UHGV virus genome: UHGV-0125821 | Reading direction: 5' to 3' (one strand) | DNA: 64,000 nt | DNA from: a virus | Notes under the pieces: model-generated | Database searches by the model: none | What the model was told of the DNA's origin: nothing | Seen by the model: the letters and a program-made list of their open reading frames with translations, nothing else | Position numbers and translations under genes: made by a program | In this document: one piece after another, positions 208-19,593 of the stretch | Layout of the letters: each line of letters starts with the position of its first letter | Numbering within the stretch: the stretch's first letter is position 1

Positions 208-379
208 GGGTTTTCGTCATGGTTAGCGACTTTGCGGCGGTTTAGAAACCGACCATTAAAGTAAATGCAAACGATGATCTGATGATGGTAGCGGCCTAAG
301 AAGCCTGACGCCACGGGGTATGAGTCGTCCCCCGTCAAAAAATCGACCGCAGAGTGTCCCCGTCTGTGTATTAGGGAAC

Positions 380-477: not shown

Positions 478-666
478 GCGTAATAGCCATTGCTTAATGG
501 CATCCTGGGGGAATTTCTTGTAACGGGTATATCCCGTCATGCTGAAGGCGCTAATCACGCTGGAAGCCAGGGTTATGCATCCCCTGTTACTGAATTGCAG
601 CCAGGGCGCGGTGCGCCGAAAAGCATACGGAGGTGGAAGCCCTCGCCGGAGACGTACCCGGCAAGT

Positions 667-742
667 GATGGTGTAGCTCAGCGGTTAGAGCGGTTGACTG
701 TTAATCAACGGGTCGATGGTTCAAATCCATCCACCATCGCCA
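667..742 (+). tRNA. tRNA-Asn (anticodon GTT)
   Basis: hand-folded cloverleaf: acceptor GATGGTG/CACCATC, anticodon loop CTGTTAA, T-loop TTCAAAT, encoded CCA. Confidence 0.85.
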
Positions 743-744
743 AT

Positions 745-820
745 GCCGGTTTAGCTCAGTTGGTAGAGCGCCTGCCTTGTAAGCAGGATGTCAGCGGTTC
801 GAGTCCGTTAACCGGCACCA
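745..820 (+). tRNA. tRNA-Thr (anticodon TGT)
   Basis: acceptor GCCGGTT/AACCGGC, D-loop AGTTGGTA, anticodon loop CTTGTAA, T-loop TTCGAGT, encoded CCA; 2 nt after tRNA-Asn. Confidence 0.85.
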
Positions 821-828
821 ACACAACA

Positions 829-902
829 GGTAAGGGTATTTTGCGACGTCGGAGATCGCCGTGCTTGGCAGAGGGTTCGAATCCCTACGAAGTACCCTTA
901 CC
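829..902 (+). ncRNA. tRNA-like element that does not fold as a canonical tRNA
   Basis: 10-bp terminal stem GGTAAGGGTA/TACCCTTACC enclosing GGTTCGAATCC T-arm-like motif; no cloverleaf register fits. Confidence 0.3.
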
Positions 903-1241
903 GTTGTGATGAAGTGCAGCTCTTTGAAGCAACCAGAAGATAAGCATCTGGCTTCACAACATAAACCGCAGGAACGACCAATAAACGGTAGTCCGTATGG
1001 AGAACACCCCGTTGAGGAAGAGGCCTGGCCGGAACCGTAACCGGCACTACAACGTTAAGAACACTGGCGTAACGGGGTCATATCCCAATCTATGAATAAA
1101 TGTTGCGTTGCAGCGTGACAACCAGTGTTCTCAACATTGTGGTGAATGCACAGGCTGATGTGCCGCAACTACAGTAGTGCGCGCTTTGCGGGGCTTGCTA
1201 CAACCCTGTGTCGGAGTTCAGCACCGACCATCACAATCACT

Positions 1242-1328
1242 GGAGAGTAGGGAGCATGGTGCTCAAACGGTCTTGAAAACCGTCCCATTGCGCAAGCGAT
1301 GATGGTTCGATTCCATTACTCTCCGCCA
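1242..1328 (+). tRNA. class-II tRNA-like, Ser(TGA)-like anticodon arm, atypical D-arm
   Basis: acceptor GGAGAGT/ACTCTCC plus G plus CCA; anticodon arm ACGGT-CTTGAAA-ACCGT; variable hairpin with GCAA loop; D-loop only 5 nt. Confidence 0.4.
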
Positions 1329-1591
1329 GTGCAACGTTAAGAGTATTTGGCTAATTAAGCGAATGCCGGAAGCAGAACCGGATCACCAAATGCGTACAGG
1401 CGTCATCGCCGCCCAGCCAGCCAAGTGCTCTTACCATTGCGGTGAATGCGGTTAAGCGCACGCGGAACAGTTAAAACAATCCTCCTTAGTGGTTAAGTCA
1501 AACATCCCGGCGTTAATTGTTAACTGGTTAACGTCACCTGGAGGCACCAGGCACCGCAGCTTTTTTATTCGTTAAATAATGGAGTGAGAGG

Positions 1592-1828
1592 ATGCAGAAC
1601 AATCCGAACAAATGTCGAACGCTATGGGTGCGGTTATATATTTATGTCGCCCTCTGTTTGATTGTGTCACTGGTTCTGTATGTTTGGCTTTTGCCAAATA
1701 TGATCTCATCTGACAGCACAATACTTGTATTGTTGGGAGTCCTTCTCGCGCTCATTTACCCGGCTTTTGCAGTAGTCTTTTTTCGTGAAAAAACCAGGAA
1801 ATTGATTAATGAAAAAAACGTTGATTAG
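1592..1828 (+). CDS. small membrane protein with two predicted TM helices
   Basis: hydrophobic 78-aa ORF, SD-like GGAGTGAGAGG before ATG, overlaps start of SPFH gene. Confidence 0.5.
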   Translation: MQNNPNKCRTLWVRLYIYVALCLIVSLVLYVWLLPNMISSDSTILVLLGVLLALIYPAFAVVFFREKTRKLINEKNVD

Positions 1829-2615
1829 TGCAGCGATTATTTTTGGTTCTTTATGTCTGACCGGATGCGACCGGGTAGAACCAGGCAATGTAGGGATCAA
1901 AGTAAATAAGCTGGGGGATGATAAAGGTGTCGGCGAAGTAGTTGGCGTTGGTCGCTACTGGACAGGCTGGAACACAGAAGTTTATATCTTCCCGACCTTT
2001 AAGCAAATGAAGACCTATGATGATCCGTTCAGCTTCCAAATGAGCGACGGGACAACAATTGGTTACCACATTGGTGTAGCTTACAAGGTTGATCCGGCAA
2101 AAGTCACAACTGTATTTCAGACCTACCGCAAAGGCGTGGATGACATTACCGACACTGACCTGCGCCAGAAGATCGCCGATGCACTCAACCGACTGGCCAG
2201 CAAAATGACCACCGATAAGTTTATCGACGGTGGTAAGTCTGAACTGCTGGATTCAGCACTTAAAGATATTCAGGAAGAGATGACCCCCATCGGCATTCAG
2301 GTCATGAGCCTCTCTTATGTCGGTAAACCGGAATATCCGCCAACCGTTATCGACAGCATTAATGCAAAAGTCACGGCGAACCAGAAAACTCTGCAACGCG
2401 AAGCAGAAGCCAACATGCTGCGCGCAGAAGCTGCCGGACAGGCCGATGCCATTCGCACAAAAGCCCAGGCTGAAGCTGATGCCATTCGTTTACGCGGTGA
2501 GGCTCTGCGCCAGAACCCCGGCGTTATGGAGTTGGAAGCGATCAACAAATGGAACGGAACGCTACCGCAGTATATGACCAGTAATACCGCTGTTCCGTTT
2601 GTTCCGGTGAAATAA
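1809..2615 (+). CDS. SPFH/band-7 (prohibitin-like) lipoprotein
   Basis: lipobox LTGC after N-terminal signal; SPFH-type core and Ala/Glu-rich coiled-coil tail. Confidence 0.8.
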   Translation: MKKTLISAAIIFGSLCLTGCDRVEPGNVGIKVNKLGDDKGVGEVVGVGRYWTGWNTEVYIFPTFKQMKTYDDPFSFQMSDGTTIGYHIGVAYKVDPAKVTTVFQTYRKGVDDITDTDLRQKIADALNRLASKMTTDKFIDGGKSELLDSALKDIQEEMTPIGIQVMSLSYVGKPEYPPTVIDSINAKVTANQKTLQREAEANMLRAEAAGQADAIRTKAQAEADAIRLRGEALRQNPGVMELEAINKWNGTLPQYMTSNTAVPFVPVK

Positions 2616-2628
2616 CCAAATAGATAAC

Positions 2629-2760
2629 ATGATGGAATTTTGGACGTTTGCCGACAAGAACCCTTGGTGGACATTTTTATTTCTGCTGGTGGTTGCATAT
2701 GGGGTCGAGCAAGCAGCAAAAGCCTTACGCGGTCCTGGCAAAAAGCGTAAGCGGAATTAA
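2629..2760 (+). CDS. 43-aa membrane peptide with basic C-terminus
   Basis: MMEFWTFADKNPWWTFLFLLVVAYGV...KKRKRN; below track size cut-off, no clear SD. Confidence 0.3.
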   Translation: MMEFWTFADKNPWWTFLFLLVVAYGVEQAAKALRGPGKKRKRN

Positions 2761-2769
2761 CAGTAATCT

Positions 2770-2845
2770 GGCCCTTTAGCTCAGTGGTTAGAGCAGGCGA
2801 CTCATAATCGCACGGTCACCGGTTCAAATCCGGTAGGGGCCACCA
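2770..2845 (+). tRNA. tRNA with CAT anticodon, ileX-like (Ile2 lysidine type) or Met
   Basis: acceptor GGCCCTT/AGGGGCC, anticodon loop CTCATAA, T-loop TTCAAAT, CCA; resembles enterobacterial ileX from memory. Confidence 0.8.
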
Positions 2846-3300
2846 TATTTGGTTGTAACACGGCGTCTGGCACATGCGTCGTTAGCGGTCTGGTGACGTT
2901 AAAAGGGGTATCTTTGACTCTTGCTTAGGCAAACGGACCAGGTAGCCGGAATGTGCAAGCCCCGGTAACAGTGGCGGACCGAGGACTCACCATCCTGGCG
3001 ATTCGGTGTGACAGCCGGAAGAGCACGGCGCACAACAGGAAAAGGCGTTTAATTAGCGTGAGCGCCGTTTCCGTTGTGGTAATTGCGGCTATGCGCTCGT
3101 GACGAAGCCATTTTCATTCACTACGTTCTGATAAGTGACGTCGCCAGGAGTGGCTAACCTGGCAGGTGGAGGCACCACCGCCACAACTCCTTTCAATTCA
3201 TCATATAGCCGCTCAGGCTGTACCCCTTAATTAATACGAAGTTACGACATCACTACCGGTACTTCCGGGGGATAGTCGCGCGTGTAAAAAAGGAGACGTT

Positions 3301-3876
3301 ATGTTAATGGCGAACGATAACGCATATGCAGAAGAAGATCTCATTTTGAGTGACTTCATAGGGAAGCGTGAACGCTGGACCCAAAAGCGAGAGGAACTTT
3401 ACGCCTCATTAGTTCGCAAAGGCGTCAATATCGAAACCGCACAGAGCGGCGATATGACAGTGGTAAGCGTTGGATTGCACGGTGTAAGCGTGTCAGCAAT
3501 CAATCATGAGCCATACGTTGCGTTATCCGAGTCAATGGTAAGGTTAGTTAAGTTCCTGAAGTACACAGAAGCGAATAATGTAATCATTGGCAAAAAGAAT
3601 ATCCCTTTTTCCTCGGCTTTTTACTGGATGATGAAAGGGCTTGATGCCCGGCGGACATCATGGCCTAAAGGGAGCTATATATCGATGTTCCGTGGCAGCA
3701 TTGGCAGCAAAGAAAAGCTCTTCGAATTCTTGCCGGAAGAGGCATTCGATATTGTGGAAGGGTGCGATGTGATGGTGATGCCTCGCCTGGTAATGATGAA
3801 TGGTGATTTACAGGCGCAGACAGACTGGTTTGCAACTGGTGTGGATATTATCGCGACTGACTGGGAGGCTTTCTGA
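3301..3876 (+). CDS. hypothetical protein with Trp-rich C-terminal domain (DUF2829-like)
   Basis: SD AAGGAG before ATG; C-terminus W..G..RR..W ... D(I/L)(I/L)A.DW shared with ORF 11524..12186. Confidence 0.65.
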   Translation: MLMANDNAYAEEDLILSDFIGKRERWTQKREELYASLVRKGVNIETAQSGDMTVVSVGLHGVSVSAINHEPYVALSESMVRLVKFLKYTEANNVIIGKKNIPFSSAFYWMMKGLDARRTSWPKGSYISMFRGSIGSKEKLFEFLPEEAFDIVEGCDVMVMPRLVMMNGDLQAQTDWFATGVDIIATDWEAF

Positions 3877-4268
3877 TGTACGGGACTACCAAATTAAGCA
3901 CTCAACAGGCCACCAATATGGAGTGGTCTATCGCTAACTGTAAGATCGTGTCATGCAATGCCACGCGTACTGATGTGGGCCATAAAAGCACTATAACAGG
4001 CTATCTAGTAATGACCACCAGGGGGATGAGGGTTAGCTTTCGCTGGAAAGCAGAGCAAGTAACGCCATTCAGAGAGCCATCAATGCCGCTGCAGGTTGAG
4101 CAGGATTATCTATGTTTACCAGAAATAGATGGCGGAATGCTGGTGGAGTCTGATGGTAGTAAGGCTGATTTTGAAGCCAATTTGAAGCTGGCACAGGCCG
4201 TAATCAATAGTTATCGCGGAAAGTGGATCGCAAAAGTGAAACATGTTGTTCGTTTGTCTCGCTGGTAG
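3876..4268 (+). CDS. hypothetical protein
   Basis: ATG overlaps upstream stop (TGATG); no family recognised. Confidence 0.55.
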   Translation: MYGTTKLSTQQATNMEWSIANCKIVSCNATRTDVGHKSTITGYLVMTTRGMRVSFRWKAEQVTPFREPSMPLQVEQDYLCLPEIDGGMLVESDGSKADFEANLKLAQAVINSYRGKWIAKVKHVVRLSRW

Positions 4269-4376
4269 CGTTAGGTATTTAATATTAATTTTCTAATACA
4301 ATCATCTTTTTACCAGTCTATACAGTTTTAACATTCTCATTATCATCCCCTCGGTCATTTCCTGCCCGGGGGATTA

Positions 4377-4769
4377 ATGGAACAAATCAGCAGCGCAGAA
4401 ATTGCGGATATCATGATCAGGGCTGACTGCTATCTGACAGTCACTGAAATTACCACTCTCGCCAAAGAAAAATACCCTCATCTCCATGTTTCACGAGTAA
4501 GTGTAACTAACATCATTCGTCATTTTGTTCGTTCAAGCAGGGCAATCTGTGAGCTTGATGATCGTGTTTACCCACGAAAATACTGGTTGCATGGCCTGAA
4601 CGGATATCAGTTCAAGGTGCGTGGGCGAACCCCTGAATATGGCAGTTTACTGGTTAAAAACTGTAGCAGGAAATCAGTCGAACAGGCGCGAAAAGAGCAA
4701 CGAGAGCTGGTGGACATGGCGAATAAGCTGTGGAATGCCGCCGTTATAAAGCGTGGTGTTGCTTTATGA
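4377..4769 (+). CDS. hypothetical protein, Lpa-like by position upstream of terminase
   Basis: position only; stop overlaps pacA-like start (ATGA). Confidence 0.5.
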   Translation: MEQISSAEIADIMIRADCYLTVTEITTLAKEKYPHLHVSRVSVTNIIRHFVRSSRAICELDDRVYPRKYWLHGLNGYQFKVRGRTPEYGSLLVKNCSRKSVEQARKEQRELVDMANKLWNAAVIKRGVAL

Positions 4770-6130
4770 GTCTGGTTAATTGGGAGGAGCACCGCGCCCG
4801 CTTTATAGCGTTGCGTGAAGAAAAAGGGATCACTGTAAAGGAATACTGTGAGGAGCATGGCCTTAGCTTCAATACAGCCAGAAAGCATCTCAATATGAAA
4901 AAAAATGAGGTGCGGTCGCAGGTAAAGACAACAAAAAAAAGCACCAAATCACCTGAAAAAAAACGGGCGGGAAGAGCAACAAAAAAGCTGGAAGAGGGTG
5001 TAGAAAAAACAAAATTTACAGAAATTGACAATTCGCAGGGCGCAGGTTCTTTCCGAAGTATGCCGAGAAAGAAAACTTCGGATCATGAAAATAATTCAAA
5101 TAATAACAATAAGATAAAAGAATCTGTCAGGAGATCATTGCGCGAAAAAATGGCGAAAATGATCCCCGAAGAAGATAAAAACGCCCCAAAAATTGAGGGA
5201 TCTTCTGCAATGATCCATGACGGTGCTGTGCAGCGAGCCACATTGCCAACTACGAATGTGGCTCGCGATATGATGAAGAACGGCGCAGAAGAACACCTGC
5301 GGTTAGCAATTCAAATGGCGCAAGAGCGCGCACTTCAGTATCAAAGCATTGTTGATCAGGAGGCCGAACGTCTACAGGCGGAAATAGACGCCTTGGGCGA
5401 TAAAGAGCCAGAAGGAATGCACCCTGGGCAGCGCCTTCTCGGTCTAATCAGTGACGCGGCCTACTACATGAATGATTTTATCAGTAGGTTGGCAGCTATA
5501 TATCAGTCCGAACAAAAGCTGCGACAGGGGGATGAAAAGCTTCGTCAGAGCGCTCGCCAGCAAGCATTCAAAGAGGCTGAGGCCAGAGAAAAACTCGAAT
5601 TAGCACGCCTACAGGCCGAACAGCGTGGCAAAGAGATTGAATATCGCATTGGCGCTGACGCACGCGCAGCCAGAGTTATCGCCGCCGCTATACGTATGCG
5701 TGAGCGCGAGGAACTGGATGATATCGGTGTTGCTGAATACATCGAGCGCCAGGGTGTCAGCGTCCCGGCTATCCTCGCGGCGCGCGCGGCGAAAGCTATC
5801 ACTCTTCTCGAACCACCTGTTTCTGACGTCAATGATGTTGATGATGAACAGCTGGACAAAGAGGCAAGGGAGTTTGCAACGCTTCAGGCTAACCATCCGC
5901 AATGGCTGGCAGAGCGCCGGGCGGATGTGGCAACCATTGTTGAAGAATTGGGGTGCGGAGATTACGACCGCAATGGCGAGCGTAAAGCTGGAGAATTCGA
6001 GGCCAACGACGAAGAGCTGGATATTGACCCTTCGGCAACGGCTGAAATTTACGGTGATTATGATGCATCTGATGCAGGGTATGACGCCGGAGATGATGAT
6101 ATCGCGATAGAACCGCCGGAGGATGATTAA
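4766..6130 (+). CDS. pacA: terminase small subunit (PacA-like)
   Basis: precedes and is translationally coupled to large terminase; N-terminal HTH-like region, acidic C-terminus; start moved to ATG 4766. Confidence 0.65.
   Translation: MSLVNWEEHRARFIALREEKGITVKEYCEEHGLSFNTARKHLNMKKNEVRSQVKTTKKSTKSPEKKRAGRATKKLEEGVEKTKFTEIDNSQGAGSFRSMPRKKTSDHENNSNNNNKIKESVRRSLREKMAKMIPEEDKNAPKIEGSSAMIHDGAVQRATLPTTNVARDMMKNGAEEHLRLAIQMAQERALQYQSIVDQEAERLQAEIDALGDKEPEGMHPGQRLLGLISDAAYYMNDFISRLAAIYQSEQKLRQGDEKLRQSARQQAFKEAEAREKLELARLQAEQRGKEIEYRIGADARAARVIAAAIRMREREELDDIGVAEYIERQGVSVPAILAARAAKAITLLEPPVSDVNDVDDEQLDKEAREFATLQANHPQWLAERRADVATIVEELGCGDYDRNGERKAGEFEANDEELDIDPSATAEIYGDYDASDAGYDAGDDDIAIEPPEDD
5080..5217. 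other. candidate pac site: five GATC-containing hexamers in 136 bp
   Basis: GATC at 5081, 5134, 5162, 5200, 5213 inside 5-prime part of pacA-like gene. Confidence 0.4.
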
Positions 6131-7638
6131 TGGCTGGCGGGCGCAAGATTAAATGCGTCACCAGAGATCCACGCTGGCGCGATATGGTAATCAAATACCG
6201 CTACAACTTTACCCAGGCTGTTGTCGATATTTTTGGGATGTTCCCCTCCCAGCAGCAGCAGCAGATCATTCAGTCCGTACAGGAAACGGGGAGTAGGACT
6301 ACCGTCACGTCCGGACACGGAACGGGGAAGTCGTCCCTTACCGCGATGTTGCTGTTGATTTTTATGATCCTGTTCCCCGATGCCCGTGTCATCATTGTTG
6401 CTAACAAGATAGGCCAGGTAAAAACAGGCGTATTCAAATACGTTAAACAGTATTGGGCGAATGCAGTTAAGCGTCATGGGTGGTTGCAGACCTATTTTGT
6501 CCTCTCTGACACCATGTTTTATGAGCGCTCCCGTAAGGGGATTTGGGAAGTTCTCTGCAAAGGTTATCGACTCGGCAACGAAGAAGCGCTGGCGGGGGAA
6601 CACGCGGCACATTTGCTTCTAATTCTGGATGAAGCATCTGGTATATCTGATAAGGCGATCGGCGTAATGACCGGTGCTCTTACTGAAGAAGATAACCGGA
6701 TGTTGATGCTATCCCAGCCAACAAGGCCAAGTGGTTATTTCTACGATTCGCACCATTCTCGAGCAAAAACCCCAGACAACCCGAAAGGGATCTGGACAGC
6801 AATTGTTCTTAACTCGGAAGAATCACCGTTCGTCACACCACAATTCATCAAGGAGAAGCTTCTGGAATATGGCGGGCGCGATTCTATTGAGTACATGGTC
6901 AAGGTGCTTGGTCAGTTCCCACGAGAAATTAACGGCTATTTGCTTGGTCGTGATGAATGCGATCGCGCTGCTCGCCGCAAGGTGTTGTTGGAGAAAAACT
7001 GGGGATGGGTGGCAACGGCTGACGTTGGTAATGGGCGAGATAAGTCGGTCCTCAACATCTGCAAGGTATCAGGTCACAGGGATAAGCGGCGCGTTGTTAA
7101 CTTTAAGGTAATGGAGATGCCTGGCACTATGGACCCATTGGCCTTTGCTGACTTCATATATAACGAATGTACGCCGGAAAAATACCCGAATATAACAATC
7201 GCGGTTGATGCTGATGGTTTTGGTTCTGATACGTGTGCGCAGTTGGTGCGTCGTGGTGCGAACCCGGTACGTATTCGGTGGGGAAAACCCATGTTTGCGA
7301 ACAAAGACAGGGAGCGATTTGTTAATCAGCGTGCCTACGCAAATATTATGGCGCGTGATGCCATAAAGTCAGGGCGTATGCGGATAGACAGTGACCCTAA
7401 AACGGCAGAGCAAGCGTCAAAAATCCCCTTTTTACTGAATGAAGAAGGGAAAATGGCGATGATGCGCAAAGAGCACATGCGGCAAAAGCTAAACATCAAA
7501 TCGCCTGACCGATGGGATACCTACTGCTTCACTATGCTGGTGGACTATGTGCCTGCTAATGAAGATATTGGTGCCGAAATGGCAACTTTCCGAGATCAGG
7601 TTCTGGCGGATATCGAAATGCCGGATCTGGATATATAA
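6130..7638 (+). CDS. pacB: terminase large subunit (PacB-like)
   Basis: Walker A GHGTGKS, Walker B-like LLILDEA, nuclease-like C-terminal half. Confidence 0.75.
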   Translation: MAGGRKIKCVTRDPRWRDMVIKYRYNFTQAVVDIFGMFPSQQQQQIIQSVQETGSRTTVTSGHGTGKSSLTAMLLLIFMILFPDARVIIVANKIGQVKTGVFKYVKQYWANAVKRHGWLQTYFVLSDTMFYERSRKGIWEVLCKGYRLGNEEALAGEHAAHLLLILDEASGISDKAIGVMTGALTEEDNRMLMLSQPTRPSGYFYDSHHSRAKTPDNPKGIWTAIVLNSEESPFVTPQFIKEKLLEYGGRDSIEYMVKVLGQFPREINGYLLGRDECDRAARRKVLLEKNWGWVATADVGNGRDKSVLNICKVSGHRDKRRVVNFKVMEMPGTMDPLAFADFIYNECTPEKYPNITIAVDADGFGSDTCAQLVRRGANPVRIRWGKPMFANKDRERFVNQRAYANIMARDAIKSGRMRIDSDPKTAEQASKIPFLLNEEGKMAMMRKEHMRQKLNIKSPDRWDTYCFTMLVDYVPANEDIGAEMATFRDQVLADIEMPDLDI

Positions 7639-7665
7639 AGCCCCGCGATGCGGGGCCGGTTGTGA

Positions 7666-8703
7666 TTACCAGAGCTTCGCGGCGTACTGCGTTTGGGGGA
7701 ATGTGTATCCGTAACGTTCTTCGATTGCTTTGCCGTATTTTTTACGAGCTTCATTCAGTTTAATGCCGGTCAGGTCGTCTCCAGAGGCCATCATTACGTC
7801 TAACAATTCCAGATCCATTTTATCCAGCCTTGCCATTGCTTCACGTGATGTACGTATCTTACGCTCAATGATATGGCGAATAGCCGGATCGGCATCCTCC
7901 AGCATCTTAGCGGATTTCTGCTTAAGGCTTTCATTGCGAATATCGATGTTCCTTAAGATGTACGACTTCGCAACGTAGCTTGGCTGGTGTTTTTCCAGGT
8001 CACGAACACGATATAAGTTAAAATCGCCGAGAAGGCTGCAAGGTACCGATTCGACGCCAGAATAAATTGTAATGCTCCGGCGTTCACCAACATTATTGAC
8101 AACGGGGATCGTTGTCTTCGGTAGTCTTGCGAAAACCAATGCACCATGTGCGCCAACTCTAAAGCGAGAAAGGGCATTGCTGCCTTCGATGTTTGTTGTC
8201 AGCACAACATCTGTATATGCCTCTTTACGCGCCCGGTAGATCTCGCCTTCAGGCTCAGCTTCAAAGAAGCGCTGTTCTTCTTCAAGATCGCCTACGATTT
8301 GAGAAAAAACCCTATTTTTCAGGCTTTTCTTTATGATTTTGTCGTATTTTTTTAGCAATTGTTCACGTGTAAATGTACGTGTTGTTGTAGCGCTTTGCAC
8401 AACGACATGCGTGCTTTGATTGGTGTCCTCAATGATGAATGGGATCGGAGAATATACAGACTCAACAATGTTCGACGCTTTGCCGTCGGCATCGCGGCAC
8501 ATGTCAACGAAGGCTTTCCATTCAGCAAGACATTTTTCAGCTTCTTCTAATATGTTTTGGTCATGCGTTAATGCAACATGGCGGAATTCCTCGCCAGCAT
8601 AACTGGTATCATGGAAAACAGAGTTTGCGACCACCAGCTCTTTCCACCGTTCAGCGGTTTGCAGGAACCGTTTGTACTCTTTCTCGATCGACTTCTTACT
8701 CAT
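7666..8703 (-). CDS. hypothetical 345-aa protein at the position of the P1 c1 repressor
   Basis: antisense between pacB-like and rox/dre; operator-like motif 20 bp upstream of its start; function not established. Confidence 0.6.
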   Translation of the reverse strand: MSKKSIEKEYKRFLQTAERWKELVVANSVFHDTSYAGEEFRHVALTHDQNILEEAEKCLAEWKAFVDMCRDADGKASNIVESVYSPIPFIIEDTNQSTHVVVQSATTTRTFTREQLLKKYDKIIKKSLKNRVFSQIVGDLEEEQRFFEAEPEGEIYRARKEAYTDVVLTTNIEGSNALSRFRVGAHGALVFARLPKTTIPVVNNVGERRSITIYSGVESVPCSLLGDFNLYRVRDLEKHQPSYVAKSYILRNIDIRNESLKQKSAKMLEDADPAIRHIIERKIRTSREAMARLDKMDLELLDVMMASGDDLTGIKLNEARKKYGKAIEERYGYTFPQTQYAAKLW

Positions 8704-8718
8704 TATTCCTACTCGATT

Positions 8719-8738
8719 TAGTTTTCTAACATAAAATT
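8719..8738. promoter_or_regulatory. operator-like motif copy
   Basis: TTATGTTAGAAAACTAAATC on minus strand. Confidence 0.45.
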
Positions 8739-8914
8739 ACTATGACAAATTTATGTCGAATAACAGAGTGAGTAAAGGATCGAACTGTGATTTTTTGTCA
8801 TCAATTTTAGAAAACCAACCGTAGAAACCACACTTCGCAAATTAAAGACCATGAAGGCAACGTGTTACTGGTCATCATCAATCTATGATGGGTTAAAAAA
8901 AAATCGGCATTTTA

Positions 8915-8946
8915 TAACTTTAAATAATTGGCATTATTTAAAGTTA
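8915..8946. other. rox-like recombination site
   Basis: TAACTTTAAATAATTGGCATTATTTAAAGTTA; reverse complement equals the rox sequence as I recall it. Confidence 0.85.
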
Positions 8947-8955
8947 GGCTATAAT
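8928..8955 (+). promoter_or_regulatory. sigma70-like promoter overlapping rox
   Basis: -35 TTGGCA (8928-8933), 16-bp spacer, -10 TATAAT (8950-8955), pointing toward dre. Confidence 0.45.
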
Positions 8956-9098
8956 CATGTGTAGATGAACAGTATTGACATCACTGAAAATACGTACCTC
9001 GAATCAAAGGCTTGTATTTTGAAAATTAACTTATAGCTACCCTGTCATTTTTATATTTTTCGCGTAGCATCATCTGTATATAGAGGTGAAATAGTTTC

Positions 9099-10127
9099 AT
9101 GAGTGAATTGATTATCTCTGGCAGTTCCGGTGGTTTTCTGCGCAACATTGGCAAAGAGTACCAGGAAGCCGCAGAAAACTTTATGCGGTTCATGAATGAC
9201 CAGGGGGCTTATGCGCCGAATACTCTGCGCGACCTCCGGTTGGTGTTTCATTCCTGGGCGCGCTGGTGTCACGCTCGCCAGCTTGCCTGGTTTCCGATCT
9301 CACCAGAAATGGCCCGCGAGTATTTTCTTCAGTTGCATGATGCCGATCTGGCTTCGACCACCATTGATAAGCACTACGCCATGCTTAACATGCTGCTTTC
9401 TCATTGTGGCCTTCCGCCACTTTCGGATGATAAAAGTGTTTCTCTGGCTATGCGGCGTATCCGGCGCGAAGCGGCAACGGAAAAAGGCGAACGAACAGGC
9501 CAGGCTATACCGCTGCGATGGGACGACCTGAAACTGCTCGACGTCCTGTTGTCCAGGTCAGAACGGCTGGTGGACCTGCGCAACCGGGCTTTTCTCTTTG
9601 TTGCATACAATACGCTGATGCGTATGTCGGAAATCTCGCGTATTCGTGTAGGAGATCTGGACCAAACAGGTGACACCGTCACGCTACATATTTCACACAC
9701 GAAGACAATAACGACCGCCGCCGGGCTTGATAAGGTGCTTTCCCGTCGCACTACTGCTGTGCTGAATGACTGGCTGGATGTTTCCGGGCTTCGTGAACAT
9801 CCTGACGCGGTGCTGTTCCCGCCGATACACCGTAGCAATAAGGCCAGGATTACGACAACGCCCCTTACTGCACCTGCAATGGAGAAAATATTCAGCGACG
9901 CCTGGGTGTTGCTGAATAAAAGGGATGCCGCGCCAAACAAAGGGAGATACCGGACGTGGACCGGGCATAGTGCTCGTGTCGGGGCCGCTATCGATATGGC
10001 TGAAAAGCAGGTGTCTATGGTGGAGATCATGCAGGAAGGAACCTGGAAGAAACCGGAAACACTTATGCGGTATCTGCGCCGTGGCGGTGTGTCTGTGGGG
10101 GCTAATAGCCGCTTGATGGATTCGTAG
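9099..10127 (+). CDS. dre: Cre-family tyrosine recombinase (Dre-like)
   Basis: blocks shared with Cre from memory: SWARWC, WFP, AYNTLMRMSEISRIRV, WTGHSARVGAAIDMA. Confidence 0.9.
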   Translation: MSELIISGSSGGFLRNIGKEYQEAAENFMRFMNDQGAYAPNTLRDLRLVFHSWARWCHARQLAWFPISPEMAREYFLQLHDADLASTTIDKHYAMLNMLLSHCGLPPLSDDKSVSLAMRRIRREAATEKGERTGQAIPLRWDDLKLLDVLLSRSERLVDLRNRAFLFVAYNTLMRMSEISRIRVGDLDQTGDTVTLHISHTKTITTAAGLDKVLSRRTTAVLNDWLDVSGLREHPDAVLFPPIHRSNKARITTTPLTAPAMEKIFSDAWVLLNKRDAAPNKGRYRTWTGHSARVGAAIDMAEKQVSMVEIMQEGTWKKPETLMRYLRRGGVSVGANSRLMDS

Positions 10128-10130
10128 ATT

Positions 10131-10148
10131 AAATTTCTAACACATCTT
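10131..10148. promoter_or_regulatory. operator-like motif copy
   Basis: GATGTGTTAGAAATTT on minus strand, just after dre stop. Confidence 0.45.
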
Positions 10149-10200
10149 TTTAGATTGATGTCTTTGCTGTAAAGTACCCTCGCCTATTTCGGAGGGTGCT

Positions 10201-10545
10201 TTGCAGAGTCAAATCACGGAATCAAGACGCTTTAAGGTGGATGGTTACACCGTAACCTTCGCTGCTGGTGTTAAGAACAGTCATGCTGTCGTTGTATTCG
10301 GCATCATGACCGGGCTTGAGGCCGTCCCTGTGTTTACCCTCGAAAAAAACTGGCGAAATCTGGAGGAAGCAGAAAGCTACGTCCGGAAAGTAACCATCAT
10401 TGCCGCCGAAAAACTCCTGGCCCACTATCAGGAAAATTATCGCACTATGGTCGAGAAGATTAATCTCGCTTTCACTCGCCCCACTACCGGCTTTATTGCA
10501 CCGGATACTAATGCAGGTCGCTATCCTGCAAGGGGGCGTCGGTGA
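10201..10545 (+). CDS. hypothetical protein
   Basis: ORF downstream of dre. Confidence 0.55.
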   Translation: MQSQITESRRFKVDGYTVTFAAGVKNSHAVVVFGIMTGLEAVPVFTLEKNWRNLEEAESYVRKVTIIAAEKLLAHYQENYRTMVEKINLAFTRPTTGFIAPDTNAGRYPARGRR

Positions 10546-11018
10546 AAACTTATTACCCATCTCTGAATTGTTACCCGTCTTCCTATCCAGGATTGTCCGG
10601 GAAGCTGTTAGCTCTATTAGCTAAAGCACCTACGGAATGGTTTAAGCCAGTCGTTATCAATCCACACTTCCTGGATTACGGATCTGTTCGCACTCGTAAC
10701 GAACTCAAAAACTTACTGGCGCATGGATTCATTCGACACCGTGCCGGTAAAGGCTATCAGTTATCGATTGCGCCAGAAGAGGCCGTGCGGCTATTCGCAT
10801 ATCGTGACAGCCAGACAAAAGCTCGGGTAATAGCTCAAATACTTCATAACGGCAGCACCTATGCCCGCCAGTTTGGCGGCGACACGTCGCAGTTCTTGCG
10901 GGCGGTGCGATCGCTGGAGGAGCAAGGAGTTATTGAAAGTTCCTGTCTTCCTGTTCCTACCGTTCCACATATCAAACGTCGGGTTTACACCTTCACGCAG
11001 AGAGCTAAAAAACAATGA
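10542..11018 (+). CDS. hypothetical protein
   Basis: coupled ORF (overlapping stop/start). Confidence 0.6.
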   Translation: MKTYYPSLNCYPSSYPGLSGKLLALLAKAPTEWFKPVVINPHFLDYGSVRTRNELKNLLAHGFIRHRAGKGYQLSIAPEEAVRLFAYRDSQTKARVIAQILHNGSTYARQFGGDTSQFLRAVRSLEEQGVIESSCLPVPTVPHIKRRVYTFTQRAKKQ

Positions 11019-11509
11019 TTTACGTAAAAGTGAAACGCCTACATCCGGCAGCAAAACTTCCAGCTTATGCCACCTCCGGATCGGCGGCGATGGATTTTGA
11101 GGCTGTTGAAATAAAACCATGTGTCGATAGCAATGGTGCAATTTCCTCAAGCTGGTGGGTATACACCGGACTGGCTATGGAGATCCCGCCCGGCTGGTGT
11201 CTGAAACTCTATCCGCGTTCCGGATTGGGCTGCAAAAAACATACTCGCCTGGCTAACTGCGTAGGAATTATCGACTCCGATTATCGCGGTGAAATCATGG
11301 CAAAACTGATTACAGATCCCGGTGGTGAAGGCGTTTGCCTCAAGCCAGGAATGGCGGTCATGCAAGGCATTTTTGAGCGTGTTGAACCGGTATCGCTGGT
11401 AGAAGTTGATGAACTCGATGAAACAGAGCGAGGCGCTGGTGGCTTTGGTAGCACATCGGAAGACCGCGTTGAAATCAAGCGTACACCGCTTCAGTACGCA
11501 AAGTTTTAA
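11015..11509 (+). CDS. dut: dUTP diphosphatase
   Basis: motifs PRSGLG, GIIDSDYRGE, RGAGGFGSTS. Confidence 0.85.
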   Translation: MIYVKVKRLHPAAKLPAYATSGSAAMDFEAVEIKPCVDSNGAISSSWWVYTGLAMEIPPGWCLKLYPRSGLGCKKHTRLANCVGIIDSDYRGEIMAKLITDPGGEGVCLKPGMAVMQGIFERVEPVSLVEVDELDETERGAGGFGSTSEDRVEIKRTPLQYAKF

Positions 11510-11523: not shown

Positions 11524-12186
11524 ATGGTCAGCACTTTTCAGGTGTTCCCCAAATACAAATGCCACAGCATCATTCGGGCATCGAAAATCAAAGATATTGT
11601 TATTGTCGGCAAAGCTTATGCGCCCATTTTTGGCAGTATCGAAGTCGTTGAGCCAAAAGGAATGACGCTTCGTGTTGATGGTGTGTTCTTGGAAAAATTC
11701 CGACCGCAAATAGGAGGATATCTCGTCACTGCTGAAAATGGCTATCTGGTCTATGTGCCAGAGAAAGCATTTGAAAAATGCTATAGCCGGGTTAACGACG
11801 CCTCCGAAAATGGGGTATCGCTCAGCATTGAAGGTCACAATGGGGTGACATTCATTACAGCCAGGGACGTAACTATTTCTGCTGGCGGTATCGCTACTCT
11901 ACAAGAAGAAATCGACCTTGAAGCAGCCGACTTTTCTGACGCGCTGATGTGGCTGAAGGATGGCAAGAAAGTTGCCCGGCGCGGGTGGAACGGCGAAAAC
12001 CAATTCTGCTGGCTGGTTCCTGAAGGACAGTACCCGGCACGAATGGAAGCCATTAAGGGATATTTCCCCGGCGATCTCGTTCCGTATGGTGCTTATTTCG
12101 CCTTAAAAAATGCACAAGGTGTAGTTGTTCCGTGGTTGCCTTCTGTAGGCGACTTACTGGCATGTGACTGGTTTGTAGTGGAGTGA
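11524..12186 (+). CDS. hypothetical protein with DUF2829-like C-terminal domain
   Basis: ALMWLKDGKKVARRGWNG ... DLLACDWFVVE. Confidence 0.65.
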   Translation: MVSTFQVFPKYKCHSIIRASKIKDIVIVGKAYAPIFGSIEVVEPKGMTLRVDGVFLEKFRPQIGGYLVTAENGYLVYVPEKAFEKCYSRVNDASENGVSLSIEGHNGVTFITARDVTISAGGIATLQEEIDLEAADFSDALMWLKDGKKVARRGWNGENQFCWLVPEGQYPARMEAIKGYFPGDLVPYGAYFALKNAQGVVVPWLPSVGDLLACDWFVVE

Positions 12187-13076: not shown

Positions 13077-13457
13077 TCAAATATTGGAACCAAATAATTC
13101 ACGTAGTTTTTCCGCTACTGAAGATACGGGGATTTCTCCAGTTGCGGCCCCCACCGCAAGTTCCACCAGCACGGGAGAATCATATACCTGTATACCGTTA
13201 CGGCGTAGAAATAGCAGCGCACTGTTTAGCGCGGTACGCTTATTGGCATCATTGAATATATGCCCTCTCGCCGTAGCCACCAGGTAGGTGGCGGAGACTT
13301 CGAAAAGGTCGGTGATCTCTTCGTAGGCAACTCTGGCCTGAACTCTCCCGATAATGGCCTCTGCCCTACCCGGATCTGACATTCCCGGCAGGCCGCCGTA
13401 GCGGCTTATATTCGCATCATGAAGCGCAATAAGTTCTTCCGGTGATATATGCCTCAT
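13077..13457 (-). CDS. doc: Doc toxin (Fic-fold kinase)
   Basis: near-identical over most of its length to P1 Doc as I recall it. Confidence 0.9.
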
Positions 13458-13678
13458 TATCGGTTAACCAGTTCCTTGTTGGTGGAGTCCAGGGTGTCAA
13501 ACAGGGATGCAAATTCAGCATCCAGCGCCGCTTTTTTGTAGGCTTCAAAAGTAGCCTTGCTGACAATTACTGCTGGCTCTCGGCCTCTGCGGGTGATTTC
13601 AACCTCTTCCCCGGCTTCAACATTGTTGAGCACTTCAGAAAGGTTGCCGCGCGCGGTACGGAAGTTAATGGATTGCAT
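13457..13678 (-). CDS. phd: Phd antitoxin
   Basis: [49 protein letters not shown]... matches P1 Phd from memory; start set at second Met. Confidence 0.9.
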
Positions 13679-13786
13679 AAACACCTCGTGTGCTCGTTAT
13701 GTGTACGCAATTATAGGTTTTAATGATGCTGAATACCACTTCTTGGTGCCTTAAATCCTCGAGATGCAGTCTTGCAATTGCTGGGA

Positions 13787-14209
13787 TTAAGCAGAATAAG
13801 TGGTTGGAATTCTGAGCAGTAATCCAATCTTGGCTATGTGTGCATATGGCAGCTCTCCGGTTTTACCATCATGTATCGAGGCTATCAGATTCAATTCTTG
13901 CGCCGCTTTACGAATTTCAGTTTCTGATGGAACAAGGCGAAAACCGGTGTGTAACATTTTGATATAGAAAGGTAATAGTTCGTACTTCACCCGTAACTGT
14001 GCTGCCGCATCTTTCAAATCATGGATGATTTCTTGTTTTAAGTCAGAGCGGGGATTCGATAGCTTTGCTTGGTTAGACAATAACAGATGCGATATTTCCC
14101 CCAACTGTTCCTTGAATGAAATGTAAGACTCAACCCCCTTGATGATGAGTCGACCTAGGACAAAAACGCTTACTCCAGTGACAACAGTGACAAAAGCAGA
14201 CGAACTCAT
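13787..14209 (-). CDS. membrane-anchored hypothetical protein (N-terminal TM helix)
   Basis: 140 aa, hydrophobic N-terminus; lies between humD and phd-doc. Confidence 0.55.
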   Translation of the reverse strand: MSSSAFVTVVTGVSVFVLGRLIIKGVESYISFKEQLGEISHLLLSNQAKLSNPRSDLKQEIIHDLKDAAAQLRVKYELLPFYIKMLHTGFRLVPSETEIRKAAQELNLIASIHDGKTGELPYAHIAKIGLLLRIPTTYSA

Positions 14210-14343
14210 TCGCGTACCTAAAAAGAGAATTATAACCTCATCTTATCTTCAAGTGAGTAACCGCGTCTAATGGGAGGAATCATTTAAATGGCCAGGGCGA
14301 TATAGAGCCAGTCATGCCTCTCTATGGTTTCTCTGAAAACAAA

Positions 14344-14733
14344 TCATATAGCAGGACTATCATCAAATTCACCGCCCCTGGCGTCATTGATAATGTGGGT
14401 GATCACACCAAAAACAGCATTACTACCCGTGTAACCATCGTCATCTACTGGTAACGCCTCTTTCTTCCCGGTGCTTAAATCCTCCAGGTGCTGGCGCGGA
14501 TACTTCCGGTATCTTTTTACGCGATATTCCCCCTCCATAGCGCATATAAGCAGTGAGCCATCAACCGGAGTAAGTGAGGAATCAACCACCAGCAAAGCAC
14601 CTTGCAATATTCCCTCACGGTGATGGCTGTCTGCCGCCCGCATGAAGTAGGTCGCTGAAGGATGTCTGATTAGTTGCTGATCAAGAGAAATACGGCTCTC
14701 TGCATAATCCGCCGCAGGAGAAGGGAAGCCCAT
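14344..14733 (-). CDS. humD: UmuD-prime-like protein
   Basis: GFPSPAADY...HPSATYF...FGV(I/V)xH core of UmuD C-terminal domain, no N-terminal cleavage arm. Confidence 0.8.
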   Translation of the reverse strand: MGFPSPAADYAESRISLDQQLIRHPSATYFMRAADSHHREGILQGALLVVDSSLTPVDGSLLICAMEGEYRVKRYRKYPRQHLEDLSTGKKEALPVDDDGYTGSNAVFGVITHIINDARGGEFDDSPAI

Positions 14734-14751
14734 AGCGTTTTACCTCAATGA

Positions 14752-14771
14752 TACTGTTTATTCATACAGTA
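14752..14771. promoter_or_regulatory. LexA box
   Basis: TACTGTTTATTCATACAGTA (CTGT-N8-ACAG) about 20 bp upstream of humD start. Confidence 0.6.
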
Positions 14772-14832
14772 TACATTGAAAAGGCATAGTTTGTGAAAGC
14801 GGGGTTTGCAGGCGCGCCACGCTGGGGGCTAA

Positions 14833-15225
14833 TCACATTGGTGGCGTGAACTTGCCATTCATATATTGCAAAATGCTTGACTCAATTTTTTCATTAAAAT
14901 CAGAATGATGCTCCTCAAGGACAAAGCGCGCCTTATTGTTGCGCACAATAACCTCCGCCAACGGACTAACCAGAGATGTGGAGTTAGAGATTTTCTCGGC
15001 GCGCTCTACATCGCTTTTAAACGTTACGATGAAGTGCTGGTGGCCTGGTGACCGGCGACACAACATGCGTCGCACTTCCACGGTATCTTCACGGCCTTGA
15101 GTATGTACAGGAAAGCTATCGACCACCGCTGTATTGGTGCGGATTGTCTGCATAGAACGCGTGTTGTCGTGATAGTTAAGCATGTTTAATGTCTTCCCCA
15201 TCTTGCCGTTATTTTCTTGGTGCAT
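14833..15225 (-). CDS. hypothetical protein
   Basis: ORF between humD and hot. Confidence 0.55.
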
Positions 15226-15460
15226 CCTCGTTCTGATACACCGGATGGCTCCCTTTTGGCAACTGGAGGCTTAACTGCCGGTAGTGCCGTAACCGTTCCA
15301 TGAAATAGGTGCGCAGGTTCTCTGGTTGCTCGCGGGCTACCTGTTCAGCCATGACAGGTATGTTCAATCGCTCTTTGTACGCCACACCGCTGGCAGCCAG
15401 ATCAACGTTAACCTTATCCCGTTCTTCCTGACTTTTAGCTGCAATATTCCAGTCGCTCAT
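15209..15460 (-). CDS. hot: DNA polymerase III theta-subunit homolog
   Basis: [36 protein letters not shown] closely parallels HolE. Confidence 0.8.
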
Positions 15461-15462
15461 AT

Positions 15463-15735
15463 TTAAGGCTCACATTTCCAGATGGTATTCTGAACACCCG
15501 AACCGGGCGCAAGATTAGGGTTAGCGTTCGCGCTATGCTGATATACTGCTTTAGACTTCCCATATTGCTGACAGGCTTTATCTGCGGTTTTTTGCAGGCT
15601 ATCCAGGCCATACCAACCATCTGACTGTATGCTTACCTTTTCACCGTCGTTGTATTGCACCATTGCACACCCAGATATAGCCAGTATCGCGCCGACAATA
15701 ACGCTTTTCCATAAAACTCTATGCAACATATACAA
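15463..15735 (-). CDS. small lipoprotein
   Basis: signal peptide with lipobox ISGC. Confidence 0.55.
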
Positions 15736-15774
15736 AAATCCCCTCTGTGAATTGAGGGGATTTTAGCATGGTGA

Positions 15775-16605
15775 TCAGATATCGGCCTTATTCGGAATTT
15801 TATCAGCCACCAGCGGCAATAAAGCCTTCGCCATTTCATGAACCAACATGGCATCAATGACGCCTAGCGTATGGCCCGGCTTAATCTTTAATGCGGCCTC
15901 AAGATAGCCTCTTTCCAGAGTGGTTTTTACGCTTTTCTTGGGCGATTGTTGGGAACTATCCGGAAAATCCGGATGGTTGCCAGCCAGTCTACGCAAAACG
16001 GCCTTAACAGCCTCAATACGGTCATCATCGCAATTTTCCAGCGTATCTATGCGGTCGAGCATGATGATTGCGTTATCAATATCAGGATTGCCGGTCCACT
16101 CATTACCGCGATTGGATTCGGCAGCATGGTTGCCGCGTACTGGTTGATTCTCGGCTTTACCCTGTCTGTCGTCGCTGCATGAATGCCCTTCCAGCCAGGC
16201 CAATGCTTGTCGCATGAAATACGCAATATGTTTGCCGTGGTAATCGTCTTCATCGATGTGAAAAGCGATACTGCGGATGTATTCAATTGCGTTTTCAATG
16301 GCCTCCGGCGTTATCGGCGCTGGCGGTGCGGTATAAAACTTCGTCCCCAACGGCAACAACTTCATCGCTTTTTCTCCCTTAATGATGCGATAAGTTGATT
16401 TCCCGCCAAGGTCTACCGTCCCATCCATAACAAGGCCATGTTGCTTCTCTGAAACTTCACCAATAGGCTCTGCTTCCAGCGATGTCAGCGCAATCCGCGC
16501 CAGTTCTTCCGCTTCTTCTGCTGGCAGTACAACGTTGCTACCAGGTCCGTATGTTTCGCGCCACTGCTTGATTGTCAGTAGTCGCTCTTTGGTTATAGTG
16601 GTCAT
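15775..16605 (-). CDS. hypothetical protein
   Basis: 276-aa ORF. Confidence 0.6.
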   Translation of the reverse strand: MTTITKERLLTIKQWRETYGPGSNVVLPAEEAEELARIALTSLEAEPIGEVSEKQHGLVMDGTVDLGGKSTYRIIKGEKAMKLLPLGTKFYTAPPAPITPEAIENAIEYIRSIAFHIDEDDYHGKHIAYFMRQALAWLEGHSCSDDRQGKAENQPVRGNHAAESNRGNEWTGNPDIDNAIIMLDRIDTLENCDDDRIEAVKAVLRRLAGNHPDFPDSSQQSPKKSVKTTLERGYLEAALKIKPGHTLGVIDAMLVHEMAKALLPLVADKIPNKADI

Positions 16606-16883
16606 TTGTTAACCCTCAAAACTTTATGCCCGGGCGCAAAAGCACGCGTTTTGTCTTTGCTTATTCGCCAGCCATCCTTGCGCGCCTCTTTTGCACAGCC
16701 AGCCCATGACGTACCTATATACTCACCGAAGTCTGGCACTGGATATACACCTTCCGTGCACTGACGGCAGTCACAATAGAGATGCATGGTGTAACTTGCA
16801 GCGATAGCCATATCACTCTCCTTTAGTACGCAAGTGGTTTTTCCAGCGGTTTTGCGCCGCGCTGGGCTTTTTGCAAAAACCAC
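16602..16883 (-). CDS. hypothetical Cys-rich protein
   Basis: 93 aa with CDCRQC and other Cys. Confidence 0.45.
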   Translation of the reverse strand: MVFAKSPARRKTAGKTTCVLKESDMAIAASYTMHLYCDCRQCTEGVYPVPDFGEYIGTSWAGCAKEARKDGWRISKDKTRAFAPGHKVLRVNK

Positions 16884-16987
16884 AATCCATCATCCCGTAA
16901 TGTTTCATTAACCCCATCCGTCGGTTGCTGAGTCTCACCCACTGCCAGACGCCAGGAGCGTTTCTACGAACTAACAGAATCTTTGCT

Positions 16988-17740
16988 TTACGGTTTTTCA
17001 TCGTTTTGCTCTCCTGCGTCTCCTTTGATGCAAATGCCAGCGACGCATGGCACATTAACTTCCACGATGCGCACAGTTGGTTTGTACATCTCAATCGCTG
17101 TCAGCCAGTCAGCGCCAGTCATGCGCTTTTCTGCATCGCCATTAGTCCACTTAACCGGTACACCAATAGCCTTCATCGCGATTTCTATTTCCCCGGCGAT
17201 GGCGCTTTTTCCGCAACCAGTAAAACCAGAAACAACGACAAGAACTTCACCTTTGGCTGGTTTTATTTCCCGTGCTTCCAGTTCTGCAATGCGCTTCTCT
17301 GCGGCTTCCAGCTTCTCGCGCATATCGTCAACGTACTCGACCAGAGAACCGCCAGCAGGAATTTCGCACTCCTCGACCAGTTGGAAGTAGATATCAGCTG
17401 CGGCCCGTGTGTTGCTATGCCTAGCGTCGCCCATCTCACCTTCACGAAGAGCATCGCGTTCGGCGGTAAGATTGGCTATTTTGCTGTCTTTGCCTTCCAG
17501 CTCAACACGCAGCTTCCCTACCGTTAGCGCAATATCCTCGTTCTCCTGATCGCGGCTTTTGATGTATTGCAGGTTTCTTTCCCGTTCATCCAACAATGCC
17601 AGCGCGATATCTGGCGAAAAGTGCTTCATAAAATCGTTAAGCGCATTAATTCGCTGATCGAAAGGCATTACAGGTGCTTCACCAGCAATTTTTGTTTTTT
17701 CAGCGATTTCACGAAGCTTTTGATAATCAATCTTGCTCAC
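16988..17740 (-). CDS. Ea22-like family protein
   Basis: N-terminus SKIDYQKLRE, LLDERERNLQYIKSRDQENEDIALTVGKLRVEL block; GTG start overlapping upstream stop. Confidence 0.65.
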   Translation of the reverse strand: MSKIDYQKLREIAEKTKIAGEAPVMPFDQRINALNDFMKHFSPDIALALLDERERNLQYIKSRDQENEDIALTVGKLRVELEGKDSKIANLTAERDALREGEMGDARHSNTRAAADIYFQLVEECEIPAGGSLVEYVDDMREKLEAAEKRIAELEAREIKPAKGEVLVVVSGFTGCGKSAIAGEIEIAMKAIGVPVKWTNGDAEKRMTGADWLTAIEMYKPTVRIVEVNVPCVAGICIKGDAGEQNDEKP

Positions 17741-18381
17741 TGGTTGCCTCCTTTGCGAAGCTGCTCCGCACAATGCAGCAGGGCGTCCGTCGCTTCTTTC
17801 ACCGTAACGATGTCGCCATCGTCCAGCCCGGCAACCGTCGCGTCCTTAACGAACACCGAGCAAAGGTCATTAAACGCCTGCGCACGTACTTCAGCCAGGA
17901 GAGCGTCGGTGACCGGAGTTTCAGGAATCCGTCTCCTCATCCGTTCTATTGCATGATTGAACCCGAAATCTTCAGCAAGAGATACGTCATCCATATTGTC
18001 ATTGTCGTCCTCAATATCCCGTGGTTCTGGAATTGCAGACTTTATTACCGCATTCTCCGCTGCTAGCGCCGCGCACTTGGCCTCAAGAGCGGCAACCACT
18101 TCCTGATGGTCTTTGTACTTAACGTATGAGCCGGAGATGTCATCACCTTCGGTGTTTAGCCATGCGTCATTGCAATTCACTGCGTAGGTTCTGATGCTCA
18201 TGCTGATGCTCTCCCGCCCCTGACAGACGCCAGGCCAGTCAATAAAGTATCCGCAATGCCTACCCTCAGACGTGCGCGCAGGATAAATGCCGTTATGACC
18301 CGGCAAAATATATGCTACCCATTCATCTTGCGTTGCCTGTTTCGCCGCCTCGCGCAGTTCTTTATAGTTAATTTCGCTCAC
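17737..18381 (-). CDS. Ea22-like family protein
   Basis: N-terminus MSEINYKELRE, C-terminus LRKGGNQ; GTG start overlapping upstream stop. Confidence 0.65.
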   Translation of the reverse strand: MSEINYKELREAAKQATQDEWVAYILPGHNGIYPARTSEGRHCGYFIDWPGVCQGRESISMSIRTYAVNCNDAWLNTEGDDISGSYVKYKDHQEVVAALEAKCAALAAENAVIKSAIPEPRDIEDDNDNMDDVSLAEDFGFNHAIERMRRRIPETPVTDALLAEVRAQAFNDLCSVFVKDATVAGLDDGDIVTVKEATDALLHCAEQLRKGGNQ

Positions 18382-19589: not shown

Positions 19590-19593
19590 CTCA

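Follow-up and report, generated by a model that had tools for sequence, protein, structure and literature searches.

A Dre/rox site-specific recombination module in a D6-like phage-plasmid

The locus described in this report is almost certainly the module for site-specific recombination, Dre/rox, that D6-like phage-plasmids carry, present here as a natural allele of the published system; no result speaks against this identification. It lies in a 64-kb stretch of viral DNA, the whole of which was analyzed and is called the window below; the window represents 64 kb out of an element of about 90 kb, which may be circular, given the plasmid location of most of its relatives. The module is already known, and the window adds one more D6-like variant to it: D6-like plasmids have been catalogued before, and there is no new biology in the Dre/rox module itself. 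Its identity nevertheless has value for annotation, in that it fixes the whole window as a D6-like phage-plasmid and guides which genes are to be expected there.

The rox site and the Dre protein

The rox site, TAACTTTAAATAATTGGCATTATTTAAAGTTA, occupies positions 8915 to 8946 and, having no strand assigned, is described here as it reads in the window: a left arm at 8915-8928, the spacer TGGC at 8929-8932, and a right arm at 8933-8946. The initial annotation had pointed to a 32-bp site with 14-bp inverted arms and a 4-bp spacer, and this description is exact, since the site is a perfect 14-4-14 arrangement in which the two arms, 14 nt each and separated by 4 nt, are 100% complementary. A survey of short-range inverted repeats over the whole window returned eight, and besides rox just two of them have perfectly complementary arms (13 and 12 nt). 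The full site is the sole match in 64 kb at ≤3 mismatches, compared to none in 100 shuffled sequences. No second rox or pseudo-rox was found in the 64-kb window; half-sites (≤3 mismatches) occur elsewhere at the chance rate, and we therefore count a single rox in the window.

All 32 positions of the site (32/32) are identical to the feature labeled “region of crossover (rox) site for Dre recombinase” in AY753669.1. Published versions of the sequence agree. The natural rox with its flanks has been printed as (A)TAACTTTAAATAAT TGGC ATTATTTAAAGTTA(G) (PMC3082901), which the window site reproduces exactly, with the flanking A and G included, and it has also been printed as TAACTTTAAATAATGCCAATTATTTAAAGTTA (PMC4777119), of which the window site is the reverse complement. 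The window site thus has the feature that we used to assign membership, inverted arms of 14 bp, TAACTTTAAATAAT, on either side of a TGGC/GCCA spacer of 4 bp, and the proposal in the initial annotation that this is the rox site recognized by Dre of phage D6 proved correct. The end of rox and the ATG of dre are 152 bp apart, in good agreement with the distance of about 150 bp first given.

The dre gene, an open reading frame with an ATG start at 9099 to 10127 on the plus strand, encodes a Cre-like tyrosine recombinase of 342 amino acids, here the A278 allele. A Shine-Dalgarno-like GAGGTG, read from the sequence at 9084 to 9089 (plus strand), lies 9 nt before the ATG, and its GAGGT is kept in all eight aligned sequences. 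The protein matches the Pfam family Phage_integrase (E = 5e-17). Against the PDB it aligned over its whole length with Cre structures (E = 5e-69), and the chains matched in that search were all of Cre or Tre, with no Dre structure among them. Its identity to P1 Cre is 41%, as would suit a 342-residue tyrosine recombinase that shares blocks with Cre yet is clearly diverged from it, which is how the open reading frame had first been characterized. The catalytic residues listed for Dre are R175, H290, R293, W316, and Y325 (PMC4777119), and the catalytic set in the window protein is complete at six of six positions (R175, K202, H290, R293, W316, and Y325).

Comparison with Dre of phage D6 (AAV84949.1) gave 341 of 342 identical residues, the one difference being A278 in the window and T278 in D6; the genes differ at 8 nt. 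The attribution of the open reading frame to D6 Dre is borne out by this result, and the comparison with phages D6 and P1 as a whole returned the published rox and Dre as matches, with Cre as a relative at 41%. Because T278A is the sole amino acid difference from published Dre, it could be asked whether the change inactivates or retargets the enzyme, which would make this copy a non-functional Dre/rox pair. We consider this very unlikely. Residue 278 is not catalytic and falls where the alignment with Cre has gaps and little conservation, rox is unchanged beside the A278 protein, and relatives with 22-36 substitutions keep an identical rox. Furthermore, another natural plasmid, pEC213_2, also carries A278, and for this reason the residue is, by sequence comparison, a natural polymorphism.

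The D6-like backbone and the distribution of the module

The surroundings of the module are those of phage D6. Window positions 8700-10200 share 98.9% nucleotide identity over their full length with AY753669.1, the phage D6 immC region, and the match covers the features “dre: tyrosine recombinase” and rox. The window is collinear with this D6 immC record over 7.3 kb (4006-11319, 98.98% identity), with lpa, pacA, pacB, c1 (minus strand), rox, dre, small open reading frames, and dut in the same order as in D6. The terminase genes pacA (4766-6130) and pacB (6130-7638), both open reading frames on the plus strand with positions mapped from the D6 annotation at an offset of 4005, lie upstream of c1, an order common to P1 and D6. 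The c1 gene (7666 to 8703, minus strand) encodes a prophage repressor of 345 amino acids, is the counterpart of D6 c1 (AY753669.1, 3661-4698), and is divergent from dre as a member of the pacA-pacB-c1-rox-dre block.

The D6-like backbone that the initial annotation expected across the window is found there: an alignment with MF356679.1, the D6 genome, runs collinearly but in the opposite orientation over 58.2 kb of the 64, at 87-100% identity, in general about 94-98% and mostly about 97%. Window positions 1-8930 correspond to D6 positions 8516 down to 1, and window positions 8931-64000 correspond to D6 positions 91159 down to 36363. The window therefore crosses the origin of the MF356679.1 record, which its depositors placed in the middle of rox, and it is without host flanks. 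According to the D6 annotation it includes structural genes for the capsid, sheath, tube, and baseplate. It also includes a Rep3-family initiator, recognized by domain matches to Rep3_N and Rep3_C (53380-54168), and the partition genes for ParM/StbA (41884-42864) and a ParA-like ATPase (40603-41274). No database entry matched the window at 100%, the best match being 99.1% over 5 kb of the E. coli plasmid pEC213_2, and by these alignments the window is a D6-like phage-plasmid that is distinct from D6 itself. The label “P1-family” that had been given to it holds in the broad sense but not strictly, since within the P1 phage-plasmid group the relatives of D6 are classed apart, as subgroup P1-g2; similarity between the two subgroups is 0.23, compared to about 0.75 within each (PMC7969092).

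Several other features of the window may be recorded. Four tRNA genes, for Asn(gtt), Thr(tgt), Ser(tga), and Met(cat), lie in 667-2845, compared to only Ser, Thr, and Asn in the D6 record; the tRNA-Met gene (2770-2845) adjoins a 1.07-kb segment (1559-2627) without a D6 match. An open reading frame of 220 amino acids at 11524-12186 (plus strand) has a C-terminal Tad2-like domain (Thoeris anti-defence 2, DUF2829; E = 2e-22), and its N-terminal part (11527-11863) has no D6 counterpart. The region 13087-21325 is mosaic. Four segments of it have no D6 match (14830-15799, 16323-16601, 17312-17493, and 17752-19591), it shows 92-93% nucleotide identity with the P1-type phages P1, RCS47, and vB_EcoM-813R1, and it contains two Ead/Ea22-like open reading frames; the similarity pattern indicates exchange between the P1 and D6 subgroups. 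Finally, an isrK-like RNA (26079-26157) and a C4 antisense RNA (26204-26291) are followed by an icd-like open reading frame (26346-26516) that ends prematurely where 1.34 kb of the D6 sequence (D6 73680-75024) is deleted. Because the deletion truncates this open reading frame and removes the antirepressor gene orf82, the immI-type antirepressor module at 26079-26516 looks disabled in the window element.

The dre/rox module is carried by 144 plasmids in PLSDB (Escherichia, 118; Salmonella, 16; Shigella, 9; Enterobacter, 1) and by 124 of 5426 complete E. coli genomes. These E. coli genomes hold the module at 127 places, 124 of them on plasmids, mostly of 88-97 kb, and the close relatives among them (≥95% nucleotide identity) are all on plasmids. 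The chromosomal places number three: two have a full-length variant of 79% nucleotide identity, and the other gives a match that is short and partial. Dre/rox had previously been found in two E. coli genomes (PMC4957104), and D6-like plasmid prophages have been described in Salmonella, with multimer resolution assigned to the module in pYU39_89 (PMC6799933). Of ten relatives whose Dre is 1-36 residues away from that of the window, nine have the identical rox and the tenth a rox with one mismatch; the distance from rox to the ATG is 152 bp in every one. We also observed a Dre variant (about 89.5% amino acid and 79% nucleotide identity), with identical rox and 152-bp spacing, as an isolated fragment bounded by IS elements in NZ_KX960110.1, NZ_CP049291.1, and NZ_CP115312.1 (a chromosome); the hosts of these loci are an IncX3/IncY NDM plasmid, an Enterobacter IncC/IncFIB plasmid, and an E. 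coli chromosomal IS island.

These data bear on whether the pair might instead be a lambda-type integrase and its attachment site, which would insert the prophage into the host chromosome. Although Dre belongs to the tyrosine recombinase (Phage_integrase) family and 3 of the 127 E. coli places are chromosomal, such a reading is extremely improbable. The simple symmetric 32-bp site is rox, which Dre recombines without accessory factors (PMC4957104), and Dre aligns over its full length with Cre. None of the three chromosomal places is a close (≥95%) relative, and the window holds replication and partition genes. The one chromosomal copy that we inspected sits amid IS26, IS1, IS30, and IS903, with VapBC, StbA, and part of a rep gene nearby; what it represents is plasmid debris captured among IS elements rather than a prophage with its junction at rox. 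Chromosomal integration through rox was rejected on inspecting this match. Membership of the locus in the lambda-type integrase/attP class, which would call for a complex att site with arm-type sites and insertion into a chromosomal attB, was likewise rejected, on the grounds of the simple 32-bp palindrome, the full-length Cre alignment, and the lack of a rox junction at the inspected copy.

Expected natural roles of the module and possible control of dre

Dre recombines rox in E. coli and in mammalian cells without acting on lox, and its recombination of two rox sites, as shown for the T278 protein, needs no accessory proteins (PMC3082901, PMC4957104). By analogy with Cre structures, to which the protein is related by 41% homology over its full length, a pair of Dre monomers would occupy the 14-bp arms of each rox, and two such sites would synapse in a Dre tetramer. 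The active-site tyrosine, Y325, would then carry out an ordered strand exchange in the central region via a Holliday junction, as in Cre. The element has one rox per genome, so a plasmid dimer would have two, and recombination between them would yield monomers to be segregated by the partition system; recombination between rox copies in the terminal redundancy of injected DNA would yield a circular genome.

From the example of P1 Cre/lox, we infer that the natural roles of Dre/rox are dimer resolution and the cyclization of infecting DNA. The prediction in the initial annotation of plasmid-dimer resolution rather than integration would follow from the same example, and the plasmid location and the plasmid genes support it indirectly; our literature search for natural dimer resolution by Dre found no relevant paper. 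Cyclization of infecting DNA would, by this analogy, be as much expected as dimer resolution, and the order pacA-pacB-c1-site-recombinase is consistent with such a role.

It is conceivable, though we think it doubtful, that circularizing a terminally redundant linear genome is the main natural role and dimer resolution a secondary one, a proposal that differs only in emphasis from the dual role given above. The circularization of a terminally redundant linear genome after infection is the original meaning of “Cre.” In P1 the gene order sets lox within a few kilobases of pac and thereby brings it into the terminal redundancy of the first headful, and the pacA-pacB-c1-rox-dre order of the window is shared with P1. 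However, a P1-type pac site (clustered TGATC[AG] hexamers) was not found in pacA, there being just three scattered sites in 4000-7700. With no hexamer cluster found, the pac site is therefore not placed, the geometry of cyclization is drawn from gene order only, and a position of rox inside the terminal redundancy is assumed on that same basis. In P1, moreover, RecA of the host suffices to circularize most genomes, and it is in plasmid stability that Cre has its clear phenotype. Dre-like genes with identical rox are also found on plasmids other than intact phages, for which resolution alone would be relevant. A role in both dimer resolution and cyclization is the reading that we retain as an expectation from P1.

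Two candidate promoters lie between rox and dre or across rox itself. A consensus scan identified a promoter-like sequence at 8928 to 8955 on the plus strand, TTGGCA-16 nt-TATAAT, which matches at 11 of 12 positions and points at dre; its -35 hexamer, TTGGCA (8928-8933), spans the rox spacer. The candidate -10 is kept in seven of eight aligned loci (the window and seven relatives), in one of them with a 17-nt spacer, and it is kept even at loci with diverged sequence just downstream. The second candidate is a perfect TTGACA at 8975-8980, present in all eight aligned relatives, with a conserved TCGAAT 18 nt later (8999-9004); together these could form an additional promoter for dre, weaker than the first and on the downstream side of rox. 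Control by Dam methylation (GATC), as at the P1 cre promoters, is unsupported, the one GATC (8778) being upstream of rox with none near the candidates.

A further dispersed element may contribute to regulation in the window. It is an asymmetric motif of about 17 bp, aTTa[A/G]TTTTCTAACAC, with 14 matches (≤2 mismatches) compared to 6.9 expected. It occurs at 4288, 8721, 10132, 20631/20651, 24875, 25532, 27239, 35833/35853 (an inverted pair), and 45759, often ahead of operons. Motif search and flank comparison placed two copies of its consensus, ATTTTCTAACAC, near the module, both on the plus strand: that at 8721 to 8732 adjoins the c1 start, and that at 10132 to 10143 begins 5 nt past the dre stop and precedes the operon downstream. 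The motif is probably the operator of a D6-type C1 repressor, by analogy with P1, in which C1 operators are likewise scattered. No C1-operator-like motif overlaps the region upstream of dre, which would fit expression of dre in the prophage state.

Given the overlap between the rox spacer and the -35 hexamer of the first candidate, Dre that occupies rox could repress the dre promoter. The recombination site would then double as an operator, through which Dre would repress its own promoter as Tn3 resolvase does at res. We regard this as unlikely, even though several observations are in its favor. The candidate is the strongest sigma-70-like match in the 64 kb, the only one of at least 11 of 12, and lies on the dre strand, its -10 is retained in all but one of the aligned loci, the distance from rox to the ATG is fixed across all ten relatives, and no C1-operator-like motif overlaps the candidate. 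Yet it is a consensus match only, of a kind that shuffled sequences yield about once per 64 kb, and the AT content of rox is high. In one relative the -10 is weak (CATGAT). The arrangement of a promoter in the spacer was sought at 43 distant Cre/Dre-like loci and was absent from them, the cre promoters annotated in P1 lie clear of lox, and the conserved TTGACA at 8975-8980 could serve another promoter. No paper on rox/dre autoregulation was found, and we know of no such feedback described for Cre-type recombinases. If true, autoregulation would mean a low recombinase level in the prophage state, with expression tied to occupancy of the site. In Tn3 and gamma-delta resolvase the recombination site at res overlaps the recombinase promoter, as proposed for rox/dre, but these enzymes are serine recombinases with a site architecture unrelated to rox.

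Comparison with known recombinase/site pairs

Since 2004, Dre/rox has served as a standard tool of genome engineering. Of practical interest in this regard are the invariance of rox across natural Dre variants up to 10% apart in protein (identical in 9/10 relatives, one mismatch in the tenth) and the existence of a natural A278 allele of Dre. The rox/pox/lox-like sites of Erwiniaceae and related genera could, in addition, be mined for orthogonal recombinase/site pairs. Among GTDB species representatives a scan gave no close Dre, only homologues of 41-47% identity; these make up 74 loci, mainly in Pantoea, Mixta, Rahnella, Erwinia, and Chimaeribacter, with several on large plasmids. A rox/pox/lox-like 14-4-14 site is present at 46 of the 74, in Pantoea, Mixta, Rahnella, and Erwinia, and because 43 of the 74 have the site within about 400 bp upstream of the gene, mostly at 150-300 bp, a site just upstream of the recombinase gene holds as a family-wide layout. 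On Pantoea sp. C3 plasmid pC3_3, the sequence TAACTTCGTATA-ATTATACT-TATACGAAGTTA at 1258-1289 lies upstream of a recombinase that is 43-44% identical to Dre, and one further locus is alike. Its arms match the loxP arm, ATAACTTCGTATA, with a different spacer, and it could be a natural lox-arm variant.

The Dre/rox system of Escherichia (Salmonella) phage D6 was reportedly described by Sauer and McDermott in 2004. The D6 records (AY753669.1 and MF356679.1) resemble the window in rox, Dre, the flanking genes, the 152-bp spacing, and the backbone, and differ from it in that the element is about 97% identical, with several small segments replaced or deleted in the window. From the D6-like plasmid prophages (P1-g2, e.g., pYU39_89), the window element shows no difference of substance; elements of the pYU39_89 type are about 90 kb in size and have cre-like/lox-like multimer resolution, repB/Rep3, parM/stbA, and phd-doc (PMC6799933, PMC7969092).

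Panto/pox, Vika/vox, VCre/VloxP, SCre/SloxP, and Nigri/nox are similar to Dre/rox in having a simple tyrosine recombinase and a palindromic site near its gene, but the proteins are far more distant, and the arms and spacers differ from those of rox. Panto/pox was itself found by the logic of a site near its gene, and Panto and Dre cross-recombine rox and pox (Karimova et al., PMC4957104).

Cre/loxP of P1 shares with Dre/rox the fold, the catalytic residues, a site upstream of the gene, and a place beside c1 and pacAB, and the same roles, dimer resolution and cyclization, are expected of both. The P1 loxP site is 13-8-13, however, compared to 14-4-14 for rox, with a different sequence and no cross-reaction in published tests (PMC3082901). 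The gap between lox and cre in P1 is about 435 bp and contains cra and three cre promoters, whereas the gap in the window is 152 bp and has no open reading frame. Strict membership in Cre/loxP was rejected on the 41% protein identity, the 14-4-14 site, and the published heterospecificity: Dre/rox works like Cre/lox but is not Cre/lox.
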